Virus record (IMG/VR): IMGVR_UViG_3300042890_002964 | Coordinates: 1-29,348 of that record | Reading direction: 5' to 3' (one strand) | From: a virus | Lineage: Duplodnaviria; Caudoviricetes | DNA: 29,348 nt | Part shown: one piece after another, positions 8,382 through 25,342 of the stretch | Layout of the letters: every line of letters starts with the position of its first letter | Numbering within the stretch: the first letter of the stretch is position 1 | Made by a program: the position numbers and the translations under genes | Notes under the pieces: model-generated | What the model saw: the letters and a program-made list of their open reading frames with translations, nothing else | The model's database searches: none | Told to the model about the DNA's origin: nothing

Positions 8382-10010
8382 TTATAGTGTTACTTCAGGA
8401 GCTTTTTCTTCACCTTCCGCTGGTGCGGCTTCACCTTCTGCTGGTGCAGCAGCTTCTCCCTCAGCTGGCGCAGCTGCCTTAGCTTCTTTCTCCTTATATT
8501 TCTCGTTCATCTTAATCTGATCAGGATTAAGTCCAAGGAATCTCTGAACTAGGAAATCGGGATCGAAGTAGGCTTTGTCTTCCTCACCAACTTTTACCTT
8601 TAGTTCCTCTAGACCCTTAATAAATTCGCTTCTTTTAGCATATCCGGACATCTCAACCATTTCCTCGAATTCACTATCCCTGTGATAGTTAAGCCCGATA
8701 TTGGCTTTAAAACTCTTGTCTCTTGATAACTCAGGATTGTCTAAACACATCTGAATATAAAGAGGTTTTACAAGAAGCTCCTGAAATATAGATCTTAATC
8801 TTCTCAGAAACTTTTCAAATCTAATCTCGTCTCTTTCTAACTGATCTATGCTTACTTGGTATGTCGCGGGAGTTCCACTTTTTGATGCAAATCTAGCGTA
8901 TGGTATCTTTGAATCCATTTTTAATTTATTGAAGAAATATAGAACATTCTCCATTACATTAAAATCAGGACCACTCGAATTAAGGGATGATATTTCTGGG
9001 GATACCCCATCTTTTTCAGGAAATAGATAATTCTTGTAAAATTGAACCTTTGGTCTACCATTTACTGTTAATTCACCGGAGTTATCGTTAATATTTATAT
9101 CCTCCTTATAGTTTGCCATTAATTGACCAAGAGTCTGCATTGCCTTTTGTGGAGACTGTGTTCCAATGGGTATAATGAACTTCAATCTATATGATGCATT
9201 CATAACGTTCCAGATAACTCTGGAGTTCTCCATTATTCTTAATATATTATAAGATCTTACTAATCTTTCGATATAGCTAACTCTCGATATACTATTACCC
9301 TTAGCATAAGATATGTAGATAACCTGCTCATTAGTAAGCTTTCTTGTCATCTGTGGATTCTTCGGATACTGTATCCAAAACTGTCTGTGCTCATTCTCAC
9401 CAACCTTTTCAACGACAGGCTGCAGAGATGCCGGATCCAATTCTTTAAATCCTATAATTTCCTTACCCTTATTGTCATAGATTAATTCAAATGCAAGAAA
9501 TCCATCTATTAGGAATTGTCTGAAGTATTGCCATCCTAATACAGTATTCTGAAATCCAAAAACATTATAAAGTCTATTATAATGAGAAGCCATCTTATCC
9601 TTGATCTTATCTTTAAGATCTATGTTTATAAACGAAGGCTGTGCAAAGTAGTTTCTATCATCGTAAGTAATCGCCTCATCCGTAATAGTATCAAGTATAA
9701 ATTCAATCTCTCCGTTTAGAGAAAACTTTCTTAGGTAGTTTCTTTTATCAATATAATCCCTGTCGAAATAAGCAATATATTTTCTTACCTTTGTGTCCTG
9801 ATATGAAGCTGTCCAATAAAATGCATCATTCTCGGTAAATCCGTTTCCGTCCTGATTATAGAAAAATCCCTCAGTCTTACCAATGGCCTGTGAGTTTCGC
9901 ACAACCATATCATCATACTGCATACCAAATTTTGATATGTTGCCTAGGTTTTTTAATATATTACCCAGTGCAGATTGATTCGGTTTTAAAAAATCTAAAA
10001 ATCCTGCCAT
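8382..10010 (-). CDS. Portal protein (T4 gp20-like), copy B
   Basis: FRQFLIDG, SYIERLVRSYNILRIME, YLFP, KIPYARF and RDEIRFEKFLRRLR motifs. Confidence 0.9.
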   Translation of the reverse strand: MAGFLDFLKPNQSALGNILKNLGNISKFGMQYDDMVVRNSQAIGKTEGFFYNQDGNGFTENDAFYWTASYQDTKVRKYIAYFDRDYIDKRNYLRKFSLNGEIEFILDTITDEAITYDDRNYFAQPSFINIDLKDKIKDKMASHYNRLYNVFGFQNTVLGWQYFRQFLIDGFLAFELIYDNKGKEIIGFKELDPASLQPVVEKVGENEHRQFWIQYPKNPQMTRKLTNEQVIYISYAKGNSISRVSYIERLVRSYNILRIMENSRVIWNVMNASYRLKFIIPIGTQSPQKAMQTLGQLMANYKEDININDNSGELTVNGRPKVQFYKNYLFPEKDGVSPEISSLNSSGPDFNVMENVLYFFNKLKMDSKIPYARFASKSGTPATYQVSIDQLERDEIRFEKFLRRLRSIFQELLVKPLYIQMCLDNPELSRDKSFKANIGLNYHRDSEFEEMVEMSGYAKRSEFIKGLEELKVKVGEEDKAYFDPDFLVQRFLGLNPDQIKMNEKYKEKEAKAAAPAEGEAAAPAEGEAAPAEGEEKAPEVTL

Positions 10011-10014
10011 CTTA

Positions 10015-11625
10015 TTATAGTGTTACTTCGGGTGCTTCTTCACCCTCTTTTTTCTCTCCGCCTTCTTTGCCTTTTTCCTCTTCCTTTTTCTTCTCCTTTG
10101 CCTTTCTCTCGATGGCTTCTTTATTAGCATCTATGTCCTGCTTAGACATACCAAGGAATGTCTCTATAAGAAAAGCATTAGAAAAATATGGTTTTTCCTC
10201 GTCACCAAGTAATCCGCCCATCGCTGATATACCTTCCTTCCTCTTATTCATCATATCCATTTCCTGATTAAGCTTAAATGGATTATCAGAAAAATAGTCT
10301 AATCCTAATTGACTCTTAAACATAAAGTCGTCTTCCAATTTAGGATATTTCTTTGCCATTTGTATCCAAAGAGGTTTAACCATTATCTCCTGGAAAACTG
10401 ATCTTAATCTGGATATAAATTTGGAGAATCTTATTTCCTCCTTATCTAATCCTTCAGCACCATTTGAATATGGTGAAGTACTTCCGCCATCGGGATTATG
10501 GAATCTTGATGGTGGAACTTTAGATTCCAGTATAAATTTATCGAAGAAATAAGCTAGAGGTTGGGGATCATTTAGATTAGGCCCATCCGTTGTTATTGGT
10601 TCTATAGTAGGTGTTCCATTTACACCTGATGGCATTAAATAATTCTTATAGAACTGGATCTTAGGTCTTCCGTCTATTGTTAATTCACCGCTTTCATCAT
10701 TAAGCTCAATGTCCTCCTTATAGATACTCATTAACTCTCCTAGGGTCTGCATACCTTTTTGTTGAGATTTAGATCCGATAGGAACTGTCATCTTAAGTTT
10801 AAATGAAGCATTCATAACAGACCAGATAACTCTGGTGTATTCCATTATTCTAAGGATGTTATACGGTCTTATCAATCTCTCAATGTAACTTATCCTTGAA
10901 ATTGAATTACCCTTAGCATAGGAGATGTAAATGATCTGGGGTTCGTAAAGTACTCTTTTCTTTTTAGGATCTTGAGGGTATTGTGTCCATGTACTCATGA
11001 AGCTACCGTCTATCTGTTTCTCGACACTAGGAATAAGTGTAATAGCATCAAGCTCCTTGAATCCTATTATATTCTGTCCCTTGTCGTCATATATTATCTC
11101 AAATGCTAAAAATCCATCTATTATAAATTGTCTAAAATATTGCCATGCAGTAATATCATCAGAAAATCCCCATGTGTCATATAATGTCTTATATGTGTCA
11201 TATAAATCCTCCTTAAGCTTATCATTAATATCACTAAGATCTATAAAATCAGGATAAGCAAAAAAGTTTGACGAGTCATAAGAAATAGCCTCATCACAAA
11301 CTGTATCTAAAACCCATTCTATCTCAGGATTAAGCGAAAACTTTCTAAGAAAGTCTCTTTTCCCCTTGTAGTCCTTATCAAAGTACCCTATAAATTGTCG
11401 GGATGATATATCCTGTTTGGCAAGAGTCCATAGCATGCTCTCATCCTCAACATTAGATTTATTCTTATTTAAGAAAGCTGCCTCCGTAACACCGACTGCT
11501 TGTGAATTACGAATGACCATGTCATCATACTTCATACCAAAGGTACTAAGTTTCCTTACGGAATCCCTGATCCTCTGTATTACAGGAGTCTGTGATGTGT
11601 TATTATTTTCTACAAAACCAGCCAT
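10015..11625 (-). CDS. Portal protein (T4 gp20-like), copy A
   Basis: FRQFIIDG, SYIERLIRPYNILRIME, KVPPSRF and EEIRFSKFISRLR; clear paralogue of the neighbouring gene. Confidence 0.9.
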   Translation of the reverse strand: MAGFVENNNTSQTPVIQRIRDSVRKLSTFGMKYDDMVIRNSQAVGVTEAAFLNKNKSNVEDESMLWTLAKQDISSRQFIGYFDKDYKGKRDFLRKFSLNPEIEWVLDTVCDEAISYDSSNFFAYPDFIDLSDINDKLKEDLYDTYKTLYDTWGFSDDITAWQYFRQFIIDGFLAFEIIYDDKGQNIIGFKELDAITLIPSVEKQIDGSFMSTWTQYPQDPKKKRVLYEPQIIYISYAKGNSISRISYIERLIRPYNILRIMEYTRVIWSVMNASFKLKMTVPIGSKSQQKGMQTLGELMSIYKEDIELNDESGELTIDGRPKIQFYKNYLMPSGVNGTPTIEPITTDGPNLNDPQPLAYFFDKFILESKVPPSRFHNPDGGSTSPYSNGAEGLDKEEIRFSKFISRLRSVFQEIMVKPLWIQMAKKYPKLEDDFMFKSQLGLDYFSDNPFKLNQEMDMMNKRKEGISAMGGLLGDEEKPYFSNAFLIETFLGMSKQDIDANKEAIERKAKEKKKEEEKGKEGGEKKEGEEAPEVTL

Positions 11626-11659
11626 TTAATAAATTGATTTATTCATTCTATCGATATTT

Positions 11660-12262
11660 TTAAATTAATTTCGATTGATACCGTTTATATATCTCCTGAA
11701 CATTCAAGCCCTCTATAAAATTTACTGTCAAATATGGCACTTTAGACCAGTCCGAGGAGTCTATTATTTTTATATCCTTCGCGAATCCGGTCTTAAAACC
11801 AAACAATGATTCAGTATATCCAGTATCTCCAAGAAGATTAATCAAAACCTTATCCTTTAAATTTATAGGTGTTCTTGCACCGCCCTTGGTATATGACGCA
11901 TCATTGCTCTTTATCTGCTCAGTAAAATTATCATATATCCTACCAAGTATATCAACTCTGGTTCTAGGAGGAACCGTTATTATATCTATACCCTTTAATA
12001 TAAGTCCGGATTCTTTCGTTTCAAATACATCTGTACAAATAACCAAAGGCATTCTGTCTATGAATGGTCTCTTCTCAGTTATTTTACTGTCAGTCTGATA
12101 ATTAAAGGAATATATCTCGCCAGGGACGAATGGTGGTTTGAATTTTTTATTCGGATTGCCGTTTTTAAAATACTTGCCAATAAAAAAATCATTGGTTATA
12201 TTATAAATATTTCCAGTGTTCTTGGGATCATTCTTATATTCTAATACTAAATCGTTGTACAT
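11660..12262 (-). CDS. DNA end protector protein (T4 gp2-like)
   Basis: PGEIYSFNY...PFIDRMPLV...GID..VPP.R pattern; adjacent to gp4 as in T4-like phages. Confidence 0.7.
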   Translation of the reverse strand: MYNDLVLEYKNDPKNTGNIYNITNDFFIGKYFKNGNPNKKFKPPFVPGEIYSFNYQTDSKITEKRPFIDRMPLVICTDVFETKESGLILKGIDIITVPPRTRVDILGRIYDNFTEQIKSNDASYTKGGARTPINLKDKVLINLLGDTGYTESLFGFKTGFAKDIKIIDSSDWSKVPYLTVNFIEGLNVQEIYKRYQSKLI

Positions 12263-12747
12263 TACTTGCTTTTAAATAGAAAATCCTCGCCAATAACACC
12301 AAATCTATAATCTCTTTTCTCTGCCCAATCTCTAGCAGCTTTAAACTTAGCCTGGTTCGTTATCCATATTTGCATATTTCTATTATAGGACTTCAGTTTC
12401 GCCACTGTCATTGTTCCCTCGTATAGAGGTTTTTTTGTTTGATTCTCCGGCTTTATCTCGATTATCCAGTCCTGTGTTTGCTGATCCTCCTTAAGGACCT
12501 TTATATAGAAATCAACATTATATTTATGTTCCTTCTTATCAAGTGGATTATAATAGTCTATAGCAACAGGTTCAGAACTCCATTTAAGTATAGCATCATT
12601 AGTATCGCAATACATACAAAATCTATACTCCCATGATGATCTATAAATGATATTATGAATATCACCAATATACTTTTCGGGATTCTTGGGATCATATTTT
12701 CCAGATCGATATTCACCATTAGGCTTTACCTTTTTAATATCGGTCAT
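12262..12747 (-). CDS. Head completion nuclease (T4 gp4-like, TnsA-type fold)
   Basis: PKNPEKYIGD, IYRSSWE, WSSE, YNVDF and IEIKP. Confidence 0.9.
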   Translation of the reverse strand: MTDIKKVKPNGEYRSGKYDPKNPEKYIGDIHNIIYRSSWEYRFCMYCDTNDAILKWSSEPVAIDYYNPLDKKEHKYNVDFYIKVLKEDQQTQDWIIEIKPENQTKKPLYEGTMTVAKLKSYNRNMQIWITNQAKFKAARDWAEKRDYRFGVIGEDFLFKSK

Positions 12748-12756
12748 AGCTCCTAA

Positions 12757-13116
12757 TTAGATATTGTATGAATTATCGTCTCCTGTAATGTAGCTAAATG
12801 GTATTGTCTTGGGATTCTTTGGCGGATGTAATTTTTTCCACCCTTTAGCAAATCCATTTTTAGCTATTTGTGTAAAATAAGCAAAAGGATTGTTTGATTT
12901 CTCTGGATTGAATCTATTCCAATATTTACATAGATCCTCCATAGCAAAAGCCATGCAATCTTCTCTATCCTCAGGATCCTTATATGACATTTTTTTAGCA
13001 ATACCAGATATCATCAAATTAAACATACCGATAGTAGCAGGAGTAAGCTTACCGTTATTCTTGGATTCTATAACAGCGGCTAATAATTCGCTGTTTTTAA
13101 CATATTCTTTTGCCAT
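12757..13116 (-). CDS. Late-transcription sigma factor (T4 gp55-like)
   Basis: YVKNSELL and FNPEKSNNPFAYFTQI signature; only 119 aa. Confidence 0.85.
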   Translation of the reverse strand: MAKEYVKNSELLAAVIESKNNGKLTPATIGMFNLMISGIAKKMSYKDPEDREDCMAFAMEDLCKYWNRFNPEKSNNPFAYFTQIAKNGFAKGWKKLHPPKNPKTIPFSYITGDDNSYNI

Positions 13117-13142
13117 TAAAGTTTAATTAGTTTGGTTTATAA

Positions 13143-13170
13143 TCTTAGTTAAAAATAGGGGAAAGATTTC
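13143..13170 (-). promoter_or_regulatory. Putative ECF-sigma promoter variant GAAAT-N18-TAagA upstream of the gp55-like gene
   Basis: GAAAT at 13170-13166 and TA at 13147-13146, directly after a terminator. Confidence 0.5.
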
Positions 13171-13172
13171 AT

Positions 13173-13205
13173 AAAAAAAGAATGTAGCGATTAGCTACAT
13201 TCTTT
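13173..13205 (-). terminator. Rho-independent terminator
   Basis: aaagaatgtagc-gatta-gctacattcttt stem-loop ending in a U7 tract on the minus strand. Confidence 0.85.
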
Positions 13206-13208
13206 ATA

Positions 13209-13373
13209 TTATTCTTTGGATTCTTCAGGTGTATCTGAATCTTCCTCTTCATCATCTATTATGCTCTTTCCGTCCGGCGCTTTACTAAGTTTTCCTTCGG
13301 AAGATTGAACAAAAGGTTCGCCTGGCTTATTCTGATTTTCCGCCTTTGGAGCGAAATAAAAGTTGCGGCTTAG
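13209..13373 (-). CDS. -1 frame C-terminal extension (54 aa) of the 793-aa protein
   Basis: Start-less open frame LSRNFYFAPK...LSKAPDGK...PEESKE* beginning at the A9 run and repeating the upstream KAP motif. Confidence 0.75.
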   Translation of the reverse strand, partial: LSRNFYFAPKAENQNKPGEPFVQSSEGKLSKAPDGKSIIDDEEEDSDTPEESKE

Positions 13374-15751
13374 TTTTTTTTTACGTCGTCAGCTTCTACT
13401 AAAGAATCATCTTCAGATTCTCTTAGATTGTATCCAATCTCATCGTTCTTACCGTCTGCGTCTTCACCTTCGAAATCAGTTTTATCTTTAGTATCTGGTG
13501 CATTATCATCTAAAAGATCTTCGCCCTCAACTTTAGCTTTCTCCTTTTTATTATCACCTGGTGCTTTAGCCAAATCACCTTTAGCTTTTTCTTTACCCTC
13601 GTTCATACTAATATTGTATCCATGAAGAGAATCAAGTTCCATTGCTATATCTTTACCACCTTCTCCTCTTGGTGCTTTAGAGAATGAGTGACCGTCAGCA
13701 AAATCCTGAAGTAACTTTTTTTGTTCCTCTATGCTTAATTCAGATTTGTTTAGGTTGTTAGATTCCTTAACTTCTTCACCTTCTTCAGATTCCTCCTCAG
13801 AGTCAGCATTTTTTTCTGCTGCCTGACTTAAAGCCTCTTCCAAATCAGTTATATCATTAACTAAAAAATCAGATGTTTTCCCGTTATCAAGTAGAATGGT
13901 GTATCTTCCAGATGATCCATCAACAGATATGATTTTTCCAGTTTCCCCAGACTCTTTAACTTTGATATAATCACCAATATTGAATCTTTCATCCTCGAAT
14001 ACATTAAGCTCCTCAGCAGTATTTATTGTATATTCGATATTTGTTAATTCAGAATTTATTTGATTCCATTTCTCTCTAAGAACCATAAGTTCTTTTTCTA
14101 GCATAGCCTTAGCTGTTACTATTTGTTCAGATCCTTTATAAAGAGAATTTGATTCGATCAATCCGTTAATTTTATCAAGTTCACCTTCTATTTTAGATAT
14201 GTTTTCCAAAACTTTATTTCTGTCATTAATCATAACAGATTTTATTCTTTGGTCACCTTCTAAGAATTCAGTTAATCCCTCAGAGATGTCATATCTAAGA
14301 TAAGATTTAACCATAGTAACTGCCTGAGTTCCGTTAACTTTATAAAGAGAATTCTCTCTCATACCCTCATTAATCTTCTGAACGTATATTTGATTGTTCC
14401 ATTTAAAAATATTAACTCCTACACCTTCGTAGATATTAGAATTGATACCTTTAGCAAAATCCAATTCAACTATATTTGAATAATTAGCATAAAGTGTCAT
14501 TGTGTCAACAACTACTTCGCTTTCATTAACTCCGAAATAAGAGCTAGATTCAAGACCTAAGATCTTAGCTAGACTTCCAGTATTTCCAAATCTAAGTTTA
14601 TCTTTACCTAAGTAAACCGAAATCTCCTCGTTCTCCTCAACCAATTTAACCATTTTCTTGCCAAACTTGATAGAGATACCATTCTCGTTTACCGATACAT
14701 GTGGTTTTCTAGATGTTTCTATTAATCTTAGGTAATCAGGAGAAAGACCGTTAACTTCTTTATCACTTAATTTTCTTAATTCATTATCAGTTGCTTCGAA
14801 TATTACACCACCAAGATAGAAGAATGTTTTACCGCTTTCAAATAATACAGGTGAATATACTTTAGATACACTTGACTCTCCTTGAGCATTTACAGGAATC
14901 TCTAATTTTCTAGTATCTTTACTCTCGTTAACATTTAAGAAATTAACAAGGTTTCTTACAACCGGATTGAAATTCCATTTAGATATACTCTTAACCAAAA
15001 GACCATTCGATTTATTTTCAGATACCAACCAAGTATTTAATGTTTCTGATAATTCAGAATAGAATGATGAGCTACCACTTGTTTTTATTGCTTCCAAAAC
15101 GTTAGCAACCTCTATTTCTCTAGTGTATTTTGCAGCTTTCGATTTAAGTTCTTCCGCGATAGGTAATACTGAAGTATCCCAGCTAAAAGATTCTAGTTCT
15201 GCAATAAAGTTATGAATAACTGCAAATTCAGATAAACCTCTATTGGTTAAAAGATTCTGATACTGCTCGCAAACTATTTTAGCTTTAGGATAAGTATAAA
15301 TTGAAGATCCTTTGATCTTATTTATAGCCTCCATTATTCCAAGATTCTTAACTCCTTGCGATTCAATGAAAGATTTAGTTACAGCATCATCCGAATCCAA
15401 TTTAGAAATGCTTTCGAATAGCGATGAAGCATTCTCATCCTCCTTAGTTTCGTTCTTTCCTGTGTATGATCCAGAATTAGAAGAATTTCTACCTCCTAAT
15501 CCTCCCCATGATTCCATAAGGGAAGCTGCAGATCTTTTTGAAATCTCACTCTCTTCTTTTCTTATAGCATCCACATGACTATTAATCACTGGTGTATTTT
15601 CTTGCATATCGGTAATGTTATGTTCATTGATAGAAGCTACCAATTCATCCTTAGAAACGGATCCACCGTTAAGGAAGCTCTCACATAAGGATCTAACCTC
15701 AGCTGATTTTGTTAGCTCTTTTAATTTTTTAACTTGGTTTATAAAGTCCAT
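13370..15751 (-). CDS. Large hypothetical protein, probable head core/internal protein
   Basis: Late motif upstream; many [LIV]-x-E sites (INE, LFE, LRE); coiled coil, SH3/KOW-like FNIGDYIKVK segment and acidic tail. Confidence 0.6.
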   Translation of the reverse strand: MDFINQVKKLKELTKSAEVRSLCESFLNGGSVSKDELVASINEHNITDMQENTPVINSHVDAIRKEESEISKRSAASLMESWGGLGGRNSSNSGSYTGKNETKEDENASSLFESISKLDSDDAVTKSFIESQGVKNLGIMEAINKIKGSSIYTYPKAKIVCEQYQNLLTNRGLSEFAVIHNFIAELESFSWDTSVLPIAEELKSKAAKYTREIEVANVLEAIKTSGSSSFYSELSETLNTWLVSENKSNGLLVKSISKWNFNPVVRNLVNFLNVNESKDTRKLEIPVNAQGESSVSKVYSPVLFESGKTFFYLGGVIFEATDNELRKLSDKEVNGLSPDYLRLIETSRKPHVSVNENGISIKFGKKMVKLVEENEEISVYLGKDKLRFGNTGSLAKILGLESSSYFGVNESEVVVDTMTLYANYSNIVELDFAKGINSNIYEGVGVNIFKWNNQIYVQKINEGMRENSLYKVNGTQAVTMVKSYLRYDISEGLTEFLEGDQRIKSVMINDRNKVLENISKIEGELDKINGLIESNSLYKGSEQIVTAKAMLEKELMVLREKWNQINSELTNIEYTINTAEELNVFEDERFNIGDYIKVKESGETGKIISVDGSSGRYTILLDNGKTSDFLVNDITDLEEALSQAAEKNADSEEESEEGEEVKESNNLNKSELSIEEQKKLLQDFADGHSFSKAPRGEGGKDIAMELDSLHGYNISMNEGKEKAKGDLAKAPGDNKKEKAKVEGEDLLDDNAPDTKDKTDFEGEDADGKNDEIGYNLRESEDDSLVEADDVKKN

Positions 15752-15773
15752 GGTTTACTTTTTTTTTACTGAT

Positions 15774-15781
15774 TATATATC
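15774..15781 (-). promoter_or_regulatory. Putative late promoter GATATATA
   Basis: Exact 8-mer also at 97, 2886, 11686, 18051 and 28798; a variant at 15806-15813. Confidence 0.65.
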
Positions 15782-24197: not shown

Positions 24198-24773
24198 TTA
24201 TATGAATAGATCTTCCCAGTAATCACAAACCCAACTGGCATTTATGCTGTATATAGCCGGAGTTTCATAATCAAGTTCCATTGAATTTATAGGCTCACTC
24301 AAGAAGCAAGAAGGTATTCTTATTCTTCTGAAGACATCACCTCTTTTATTAAATATTGATATGGACATAGATCCAACATAATCTGATTTTAGACCCATCG
24401 CTCCGGTAAGTGGATTATAGATTAAATCCGACCACTGTCTAAGAATTTTATAAACAGACATAGAATTAGCGTCATTTAAGTTAACCTCAAATTCCATAGA
24501 AAGTGTCATATCACTCTGAGAAGGTTCACCACCAGCATATCTTCTGGTAGCAAATTTATATTGCTGATTAACTGTCTGAGCAGGAGCAATATCTACTGCC
24601 AATCCAGTTATAGCTTTAACTTGTTGTGCTAGTATACTCTCACCTTTAAAAGTGGTAGCTGAATCAACAATTCCAGATGGTGGATTTATAAGCACCTCAA
24701 ACTGGTTCAAATAAACCGGTTCGTAATTGTTTATCGCTGCTTTAGAGTTTGTAAAATGTGGTAATCCTGCCAT
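24198..24773 (-). CDS. Tail tube protein (gp19-like), copy 2
   Basis: EPVYLNQFEV, LRQWSDLIYNPLTG and DYWED; follows the sheath gene. Confidence 0.85.
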   Translation of the reverse strand: MAGLPHFTNSKAAINNYEPVYLNQFEVLINPPSGIVDSATTFKGESILAQQVKAITGLAVDIAPAQTVNQQYKFATRRYAGGEPSQSDMTLSMEFEVNLNDANSMSVYKILRQWSDLIYNPLTGAMGLKSDYVGSMSISIFNKRGDVFRRIRIPSCFLSEPINSMELDYETPAIYSINASWVCDYWEDLFI

Positions 24774-24787
24774 TTTTGTTCTTTATT

Positions 24788-25342
24788 TTATAAGAATAGA
24801 TCTTCCCAGTAATCAACCGCCCAAGACATGTCATCAATTTTATATAGATCCGTTGACATGTAGCTTAAATTCATAGCAGTTATAGGTTTAGTAGGAAAAC
24901 AATCTCTACAAGTTATTCTTCTGTATACATCACCTTGCTTGTTAAAGATTGATATTACGATAGTACCTGTATAATCGTTTTTAAGACCCATAGCACCAGT
25001 TAAGGGGTTATAGATTAAATCTGACCATTGTCTTAATGTTTTATGCACATACATTGAATTAGCGTCATTAAGATTGACGGTAAAACTTAAACTCACGTCC
25101 ATATATGTGTTTTCTGGTTTAGCACCAGCATAGTTTCTTTTAGCAAATTTATACTTTTGTGCTATAACACTAGGGTTTTTATCCAAAGAAAGGCCGGAAA
25201 CTTTATTAACGTGCTGTAGTAATATCTCACCGCCAGCAACAGCAGCAGGAGGTATAATAGTAACCTCAAACTGGTTTAAATAAACCGGTTCAAACTTGTT
25301 TATTCCTGATAGTGAATTTTGAAAATGTGATAATCCTGCCAT
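24788..25342 (-). CDS. Tail tube protein (gp19-like), copy 1
   Basis: Same motifs; immediately downstream of the sheath; GATAAATA at 25352-25359. Confidence 0.85.
   Translation of the reverse strand: MAGLSHFQNSLSGINKFEPVYLNQFEVTIIPPAAVAGGEILLQHVNKVSGLSLDKNPSVIAQKYKFAKRNYAGAKPENTYMDVSLSFTVNLNDANSMYVHKTLRQWSDLIYNPLTGAMGLKNDYTGTIVISIFNKQGDVYRRITCRDCFPTKPITAMNLSYMSTDLYKIDDMSWAVDYWEDLFL

Follow-up and report, generated by a model that had tools for sequence, protein, structure and literature searches.

A conserved run of nine adenines suggests recoded isoforms of a probable head protein in T4-like jumbo phages

The junction at the end of the 793-aa gene

The window analysed here, the whole 29,348-nucleotide (nt) stretch of the Caudoviricetes virus record IMGVR_UViG_3300042890_002964, carries on its minus strand a gene (13370..15751) for a 793-amino-acid (aa) protein of no assigned family. 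The open reading frame (ORF) ends GTA AAA AAA AAC TAA. These last codons generate a run of nine adenines (A9; 13374..13382), the putative recoding site, that harbors two overlapping heptamers: A_AAA_AAA (13382-13376) and A_AAA_AAC (13379-13373), the second of which is in the correct phase for a -1 X_XXY_YYZ site. The TAA stop of the short, 0-frame isoform (13370..13372) lies directly 3' of the run. The -1 frame stays open for 54 codons (13209..13373; stop at 13211-13209) and contains no ATG; together with the 793-aa ORF, this extension would yield a long form of 847 aa. The extension consists of an RNFYFAP motif, a Q..PG..F element, another L-S-K-A-P repeat, and an acidic tail. A hairpin with a U tail that resembles an intrinsic terminator (13177..13205, minus strand; fold z -5.25) is located 3 nt past the extension stop, so the extension would fall within the transcript.

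A first-pass annotation of the window had described the A9 run, the A_AAA_AAC heptamer, the adjacent TAA, and the ATG-free -1 frame of 54 codons. All were found on the minus strand, and translation reproduced the residues it quoted, as did our coordinates the 3-nt spacing between the extension stop and the terminator-like stem (13205-13177). The echo of upstream motifs that it saw in LSKAPDG is borne out by [LF]xKAP motifs at residues 690, 727, and 822 of the 847-aa form. The gap holding the extension, most of which the extension occupies, is indeed the largest among the 32 listed genes of the window (253 nt; the runner-up is 89 nt).

Any A9 run holds at least one X_XXY_YYZ heptamer. Within the coding sequence of the 32 listed genes, A9 occurs only at the junction, with one A8 elsewhere. 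Genomes of relatives, which range from 290 to 435 kb, contain 6-36 exact A9 runs each; this scarcity indicates that the run at the junction is beyond chance.

Conservation of the run and the extension

Homologous loci were collected by two scans with the main protein, which were blind to the junction, and two scans with the extension motif. The 226 sequences (225 loci and the window) include many duplicates. Of these 226, 219 matched, 8 of which ended before the stop; the remainder collapsed to 70 distinct junctions, the window's own included. The sequences are related, and the counts that follow do not represent independent events. The extension is shifted by -1 in 64 junctions, fused in frame in five, and split off as a separate gene in one. 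The run is A9 in 63/70 junctions, A10 in 7/70, and shorter in none. Within the shifted group, 57 of the 64 have A9, seven have A10, and none has 6-8 A's, while the stop adjoins the run in 63. Homologues thus preserve the slippery run together with the stop and an open -1 frame; the opposite pattern, one continuous ORF and no conserved slippery site, was what the first-pass annotation had set against its own proposal.

Conservation at the junction extends to synonymous positions. In all 61 shifted ORFs of at least 600 aa, the third position is A in three consecutive codons. The same ORFs show an invariant third base in none of 675 alignment columns other than Met or Trp, and none of their 15 conserved Lys columns is always AAA. 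The codon that precedes Lys-Lys is GTA, TTA, CTA, TCA, or CAA and always ends in A, regardless of whether the encoded residue is Leu, Val, Ser, Gln, or Lys. Nine A's are reached by only 6 of 33 other xKK[KN] motifs, and the A-run in the leader of the same gene, which served as a control, ranges from 4 to 10 among homologues. The Asn codon at the junction is AAC in 43/43 cases, compared with 11-51% elsewhere; one AAT occurs in L317. In the complete relatives G001-G004, A9 followed by a stop is found only at the junction and at the leader of this gene. A further match in G005 was rejected, as it lies inside another ORF with its TAG out of frame. These patterns indicate that selection acts on all nine A's and not on the heptamer alone.

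In 58/64 shifted junctions, the run lies in the codon phase that produces both overlapping heptamers. The run begins in another phase in the other six, five of which are A10 extensions of the same site. The junction of the L022 group has exactly nine A's in another codon phase and lacks the adjacent stop.

The extension itself appears to be constrained as protein. For 62 of the 64 shifted junctions, compared over 33 codons, the ratio of nonsynonymous to synonymous polymorphism (pN/pS) is 0.36 and stops occur in 0/62 (pairwise values, not corrected for kinship). The other two frames over the same codons give ratios of 1.25 (56 with stops) and 1.47 (62 with stops). By this measure, purifying selection acts on the extension. 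In 61/67 junctions, a hairpin below -8 kcal/mol lies within 70 nt of the extension stop.

Conservation among homologues lends good support to the 793- and 847-aa isoforms proposed in the first-pass annotation, and we consider programmed recoding into these two products very probable. That both proteins are made is what we infer from sequence, and we infer with less certainty that the slip is transcriptional. One contig (L043:4001-6180) has a normal 3' junction and an internal deletion that disrupts its frame at codon 463.

Fused and split forms

A quick maximum-likelihood tree was built from 67 of the 70 junction rows, with three short rows dropped. The fused and split forms make up one strongly supported clade nested among shifted forms. 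This nesting suggests that the shifted state is likely ancestral and the fused forms derived. The tree does not support a scenario in which a fused ancestor lost one base to give the shifted state.

Homopolymer runs are error-prone, and five relatives do carry one continuous ORF, as would be expected if the break were an assembly error or a recently broken gene. The probability of such an artefact is nevertheless close to nil. An identical break recurs in 64 distinct junctions and persists to ~43% protein identity, and the continuous ORFs belong to the derived, nested clade. DNA contigs from two further studies (runs X3 and X4) cover positions 13000-13800 and read A9 with no insertion, deletion, or gap at the site, although contigs nearly identical to the window may still be its source; the A10 that the first-pass annotation associated with an assembly error is not seen in them.

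The fused forms retain A9, and a -1 event there would encounter a stop within one to three codons. The fused clade would thus produce two isoforms with reversed polarity, the slip truncating the long form; the clade comprises five related sequences, and recent ancestry fits the retained run equally well. These in-frame relatives read K-K-N-[PL]-S-R at the junction. The fused and split clade (P0109, P0111, P0113-P0115) also contains an inserted peptidoglycan-binding domain (PF01471; residues 122-172 in P0109).

In the split form, found in one lineage, the extension is a separate gene of 72-77 aa with its own ATG. Its leader resembles 4 of 36 ORF leaders near the capsid gene of a relative, a pattern set after the data had been seen, and by analogy may act as a T4-like propeptide for capsid targeting (PMC9026906; here and below, statements drawn from papers given by PMC number are limited to the excerpts available of them). 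Several ORFs after the capsid gene of G003 (L232) start with similar short, propeptide-like leaders ending near an x-x-E motif.

The existence of this separate gene is the one feature that would favor re-initiation, in which the extension is made as its own small protein from a non-standard codon after the stop. However, in all 64 shifted junctions the -1 frame contains no ATG, GTG, or TTG from the previous stop up to the motif, and re-initiation leaves the invariant A9 unexplained. We therefore consider it very unlikely indeed.

A sister subfamily and distant homologues

A sister subfamily shares 34% identity with the window's family over 571 residues. It was examined in loci L243-L316, from which three truncated loci were dropped, leaving 47 distinct ends. 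In 42 of these, A9 or A10 and a stop precede a different extension of ~83 aa, which is helical-looking and shows no BLAST similarity to the 54-codon extension of the window. The remaining five ends have neither the run nor an extension and instead carry a hairpin-like inverted repeat directly after the stop. Run and extension thus appear to come and go together, and the presence of the same run before unrelated extensions suggests that the run is independent of which extension follows. A run of 6-8 A's is found in none of the 47 ends. The codons before Lys-Lys add ACA, GCA, and AGA to those of the window's family.

More distant homologues are encoded by Prevotella Lak phages (22% identity), and fold-level homologues by Tenacibaculum phages PTm1 and pT24. 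The homologues in Lak-A1 and LR756500 have no A9 at the gene end. Seven homologues of ~525 aa (P0167, P0170, P0173, P0192, P0199, P0200, and P0208) end in Lys-Lys-Lys(x) where the SH3-like region of the 793-aa protein begins; these protein sequences suggest a second position for an A-run.

Polymerase slippage and ribosomal frameshifting

How the frame is changed can be judged with less assurance than that it is changed. We lean toward slippage of the host RNA polymerase as the main route, because a single X_XXY_YYZ site needs no more than six A's yet nine are kept, and the search for a stimulator was negative. In the proposed mechanism, the host polymerase, which would hold an RNA:DNA hybrid of 9-10 base pairs, slips on A9 and adds one A to a fraction of the transcripts. 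Ribosomes translating A9 mRNA would stop at the TAA to yield the 793-aa protein, while those translating A10 mRNA would read on in frame, adding the RNFYFAP..LSKAP module to give the 847-aa protein. Ribosomal -1 shifting on the run may make some contribution, and both routes may operate at one site.

Published work on slippage is consistent with this proposal. Slippage is efficient at nine A/T (PMC5009743), and Escherichia coli RNA polymerase needs at least eight A's and inserted, but did not delete, on A runs (PMC6260861), which matches the -1 direction. Conservation of A9 length among homologues is a stated criterion for purposeful slippage (PMC1088944), and runs of at least nine A's with conserved length are present in 64/64 shifted junctions and 42/42 extension-bearing sister ends. 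A nine-A cassette in E. coli gave 40% trans-frame product by a mechanism that was left unresolved (PMC3711429).

The database protein P0274 reads K-K-K-L-S-R-N-F-Y-F, which is the product expected from one extra A. Upstream of this point it is identical at 129 of 130 positions to P0066, which stops at the site. P0274 could also represent an A10 genome, as expected for DNA phase variation, in which replication slippage would toggle genomes between A9 and A10 with one form made per genome. Homopolymers are mutable (PMC1088944), and the junction is labile in one clade. On the other hand, a frame-restoring extra A is present in none of the 70 junctions, the seven A10 cases remain out of frame, and a scan of 2.9 million viral contigs found no A10 form. 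In addition, purifying selection on the extension implies regular use. Phase variation is therefore very unlikely.

Programmed ribosomal -1 frameshifting is a more substantial competitor. Ribosomes would slip on the overlapping A_AAA_AAA and A_AAA_AA(C/G) heptamers, helped by the three Lys/Asn codons and the adjacent stop, to produce the same isoforms. The stop adjoins the run in nearly every shifted junction, and A_AAA_AAG, the best bacterial motif, is present in 39/42 extension-bearing sister ends. Tailed phages use unstimulated, low-level frameshifting (PMC5009743), the tandem heptamer would also account for the ninth A, and the K-K-N-[PL]-S-R of in-frame relatives resembles the product of simultaneous slippage.

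Searches for a stimulator were negative. The fold downstream of the window junction is no better than that of shuffled sequences (z +0.5), and neither 52 downstream nor 56 upstream sequences gave any consensus structure, pseudoknots not being modelled explicitly. Single downstream sequences with z below -2 number 10/64 and share no structure. Third positions are variable immediately past the run. Shine-Dalgarno (SD)-like 4-mers occur within 22 nt upstream in 22/70 junctions, and no upstream position is fully conserved. Other data also speak against a ribosomal site. The last codon of the run is AAC in 44/63 cases in the family of the window; AAC is a poor shifter in E. coli, where A_AAA_AAC is inefficient and the best unstimulated heptamers reach ~0.3% (PMC4066793). 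Junctions with 6-8 A's, which a ribosomal site could tolerate, are absent from both subfamilies, and sites in which GCT or ACC follows the run persist. We regard ribosomal frameshifting as the main route as a real possibility, but one that falls well short of an even chance, and rank it below polymerase slippage.

Several observations weigh against polymerase slippage. The prevalent overlapping-heptamer phase is what a ribosomal site would show, although common ancestry also fixes phase; likewise, the base after the run is almost always C or G and almost never T. The RNA contigs include no extra-A transcript: X15 (depth 6), the sole contig from six RNA runs that crosses the site, reads A9 without an insertion or deletion there, and contigs drop minority variants. 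P0274 derives from one contig of unknown origin, in which the extra A may be an error or a variant of the DNA. Finally, the length thresholds for slippage all come from E. coli or Thermus and not from Bacteroidota.

The 793-aa protein

In the predicted model of the 793-aa protein (mean predicted local distance difference test score 66.6; predicted template-modeling score 0.32), a helical N-terminal part is followed by an alpha/beta middle, a long helical hairpin (493-573), an SH3-like barrel (595-636), and a disordered repeat tail (689-793). The model is folded to approximately residue 650. The number of Ala-Pro motifs in the tail ranges from one to seven between lineages, and closely related strains differ there in entire repeat blocks (731 against 793 aa; L001, P0277, and window residues ~718-780). 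RNA contig X15 lacks 24 nt at position 13389.

Neither the 793-aa protein nor its extension has a PHROG match or a Pfam match above the cut-off; a Pfam SH3 match to the 793-aa protein is sub-threshold only. Searches of PDB sequences, Foldseek PDB, and the ESM Atlas with the 793-aa protein returned nothing usable. Foldseek matches in BFVD are uncharacterised phage proteins, apart from one pT24 protein labelled 'DNA ligase 1'; with a TM-score of 0.15, we did not accept that label.

Two features suggest a role for the protein inside the head. First, a GATATATA motif, which is likely a late promoter, precedes the gene together with an A-rich 5' leader (15759..15781, minus strand). The same motif also precedes the tail sheath gene and the second portal gene. 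Second, the protein contains 25 L/I-x-E motifs, compared with a shuffle mean of 14.5 (p=0.004). This enrichment is the strongest among the 16 window ORFs longer than 200 aa, the next being that of a 210-aa ORF (p=0.014). L/I-x-E is the cleavage motif of T4 gp21 (PMC9026906). A wider motif, chosen after inspection, is about as dense in the prohead protease-scaffold protein of a relative (2.6 against 2.0 per 100 aa). The gene is distinct from the major capsid gene, as Gp23 lies ~20 kb away in relatives. The protein is thus likely a prohead-core (internal head) component. The label of head protein given in the first-pass annotation gains from the promoter motif and the gp21-type enrichment and receives nothing from Pfam above the cut-off or from PHROG. 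Because the protein has no solved or annotated relative, the evidence for the head role is indirect. Both isoforms would likely be prohead-core components, and we predict that their ratio would set the number of copies of a terminal binding module carried by a protease-cleaved core protein during head assembly.

Right after GATATATA, the leader at 15759-15781 repeats a T-A9-G-TAA motif that resembles the junction in some relatives. Reiterative initiation or translation enhancement is a possible function of this A-run.

Relation to known recoding systems

Nine-A runs of conserved length are found in Thermus thermophilus dnaX (tau/gamma), in orfA-orfB fusions of insertion sequence (IS) elements, and in Shigella spa13/mxiE, where they likewise give products with identical N-termini and need no RNA stimulator (PMC5009743, PMC1088944). 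Shigella spa13 also gains a C-terminal extension. The present case differs in that the gene is a late structural gene of a double-stranded DNA (dsDNA) phage and slippage is a proposal from sequence. In addition, the default product is short here but long in Thermus dnaX.

Recoding at the 3' end of a gene to yield a minor, C-terminally extended isoform is also known for T7/T3 gene 10A/10B, the head protein of Lactobacillus phage A2, and the capsid and tail proteins of Listeria phages A118, A500, and PSA (PMC5009743). In those phages the event is ribosomal, affects major capsid or tail proteins, and often adds immunoglobulin-like domains, whereas here a gene other than that of the major capsid protein would acquire a short, low-complexity module with no family match. 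Lambda gpG/gpGT likewise shows a conserved -1 event that has no obvious stimulator and sets the ratio of two assembly proteins, but it differs in gene, position, and size. The window has no tail-chaperone match and no small gene pair between the major tail and tape-measure genes. The 793-aa gene instead precedes late sigma, head-completion, and portal genes, in agreement with the first-pass annotation, which had placed the site outside the classical tail-chaperone setting. T4 lacks the G-T shift (PMC5009743).

The gp21 substrates gp22, gp67, gp68, and Alt of T4 are likewise products of late genes, rich in L/I-x-E, with acidic and disordered regions (PMC9026906). The 793-aa protein shows no sequence or fold match to T4 core proteins: homology to these four was absent from PHROGs, Pfam, PDB sequences, and Foldseek PDB. 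Relatives already have a long protease-plus-tail protein beside the capsid gene. The excerpts of PMC9026906 make no mention of recoding in T4 core-protein genes. Carboxysome CsoS2A/B offers an analogy only: a -1 event there gives a short and a long version of a shell-assembly protein, in a non-homologous, cellular, and ribosomal system (PMC5009743).

Neither the window's gene family nor polymerase slippage in a structural gene of a dsDNA phage was found described in open-licence papers and preprints, and PMC9723584, PMC10885494, and PMC6815119 contributed nothing about the site. The recoding trick is a known one, in a gene family that is undescribed. The long isoform is missed by gene callers, with the consequence that the proteomes of widespread freshwater jumbo phages are mis-annotated. 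The shifted, fused, split, and lost states, together with two unrelated extensions, form a natural series that makes the choice between polymerase and ribosome on A9 runs testable in a phylum that ignores SD sequences. If the event is transcriptional, phage head assembly joins IS elements, dnaX, and secretion systems as a setting for programmed slippage. It is tempting to speculate, at somewhat less than even confidence, that T4-like jumbo phages of Bacteroidota exploit slippage of the host polymerase on A9 as a portable switch between head-assembly isoforms. Such a switch would be older than its cargo, carry unrelated modules in the two subfamilies, have been lost together with the cargo in some lineages, and operate with reversed polarity in the fused clade.

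Genome context and host

PHROG and Pfam matches identify genes in the window for a tail sheath, two tube proteins, a gp55-like late sigma factor, a head-completion protein, a DNA end protector, and two T4-like portals. From the late sigma factor to the portals, these genes form a block downstream of the 793-aa gene (8382..13116, minus strand). Five complete relatives have genomes of 290-435 kb, all with a Gp23 capsid gene, and one of the five encodes ribosomal protein bS21 (L231, G004:40696-40851). The phage is uncultured, and the best-matching sequencing runs are lake or freshwater metagenomes.

The host is likely a Bacteroidota species, as suggested by the homologues in Prevotella Lak and Tenacibaculum phages and by genes free of SD sequences: an SD-like motif was found in 0/28 window genes. 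Bacteroidia ribosomes reportedly ignore SD sequences.

The portal genes (8382-10010 and 10015-11625; 542 and 536 aa) are arranged in tandem and have near-identical C-terminal ends. The tandem pair is also present in relative G003. Similar tandem tail-tube-like genes (24198-24773 and 24788-25342), the first of which was scanned, lie after the sheath gene.

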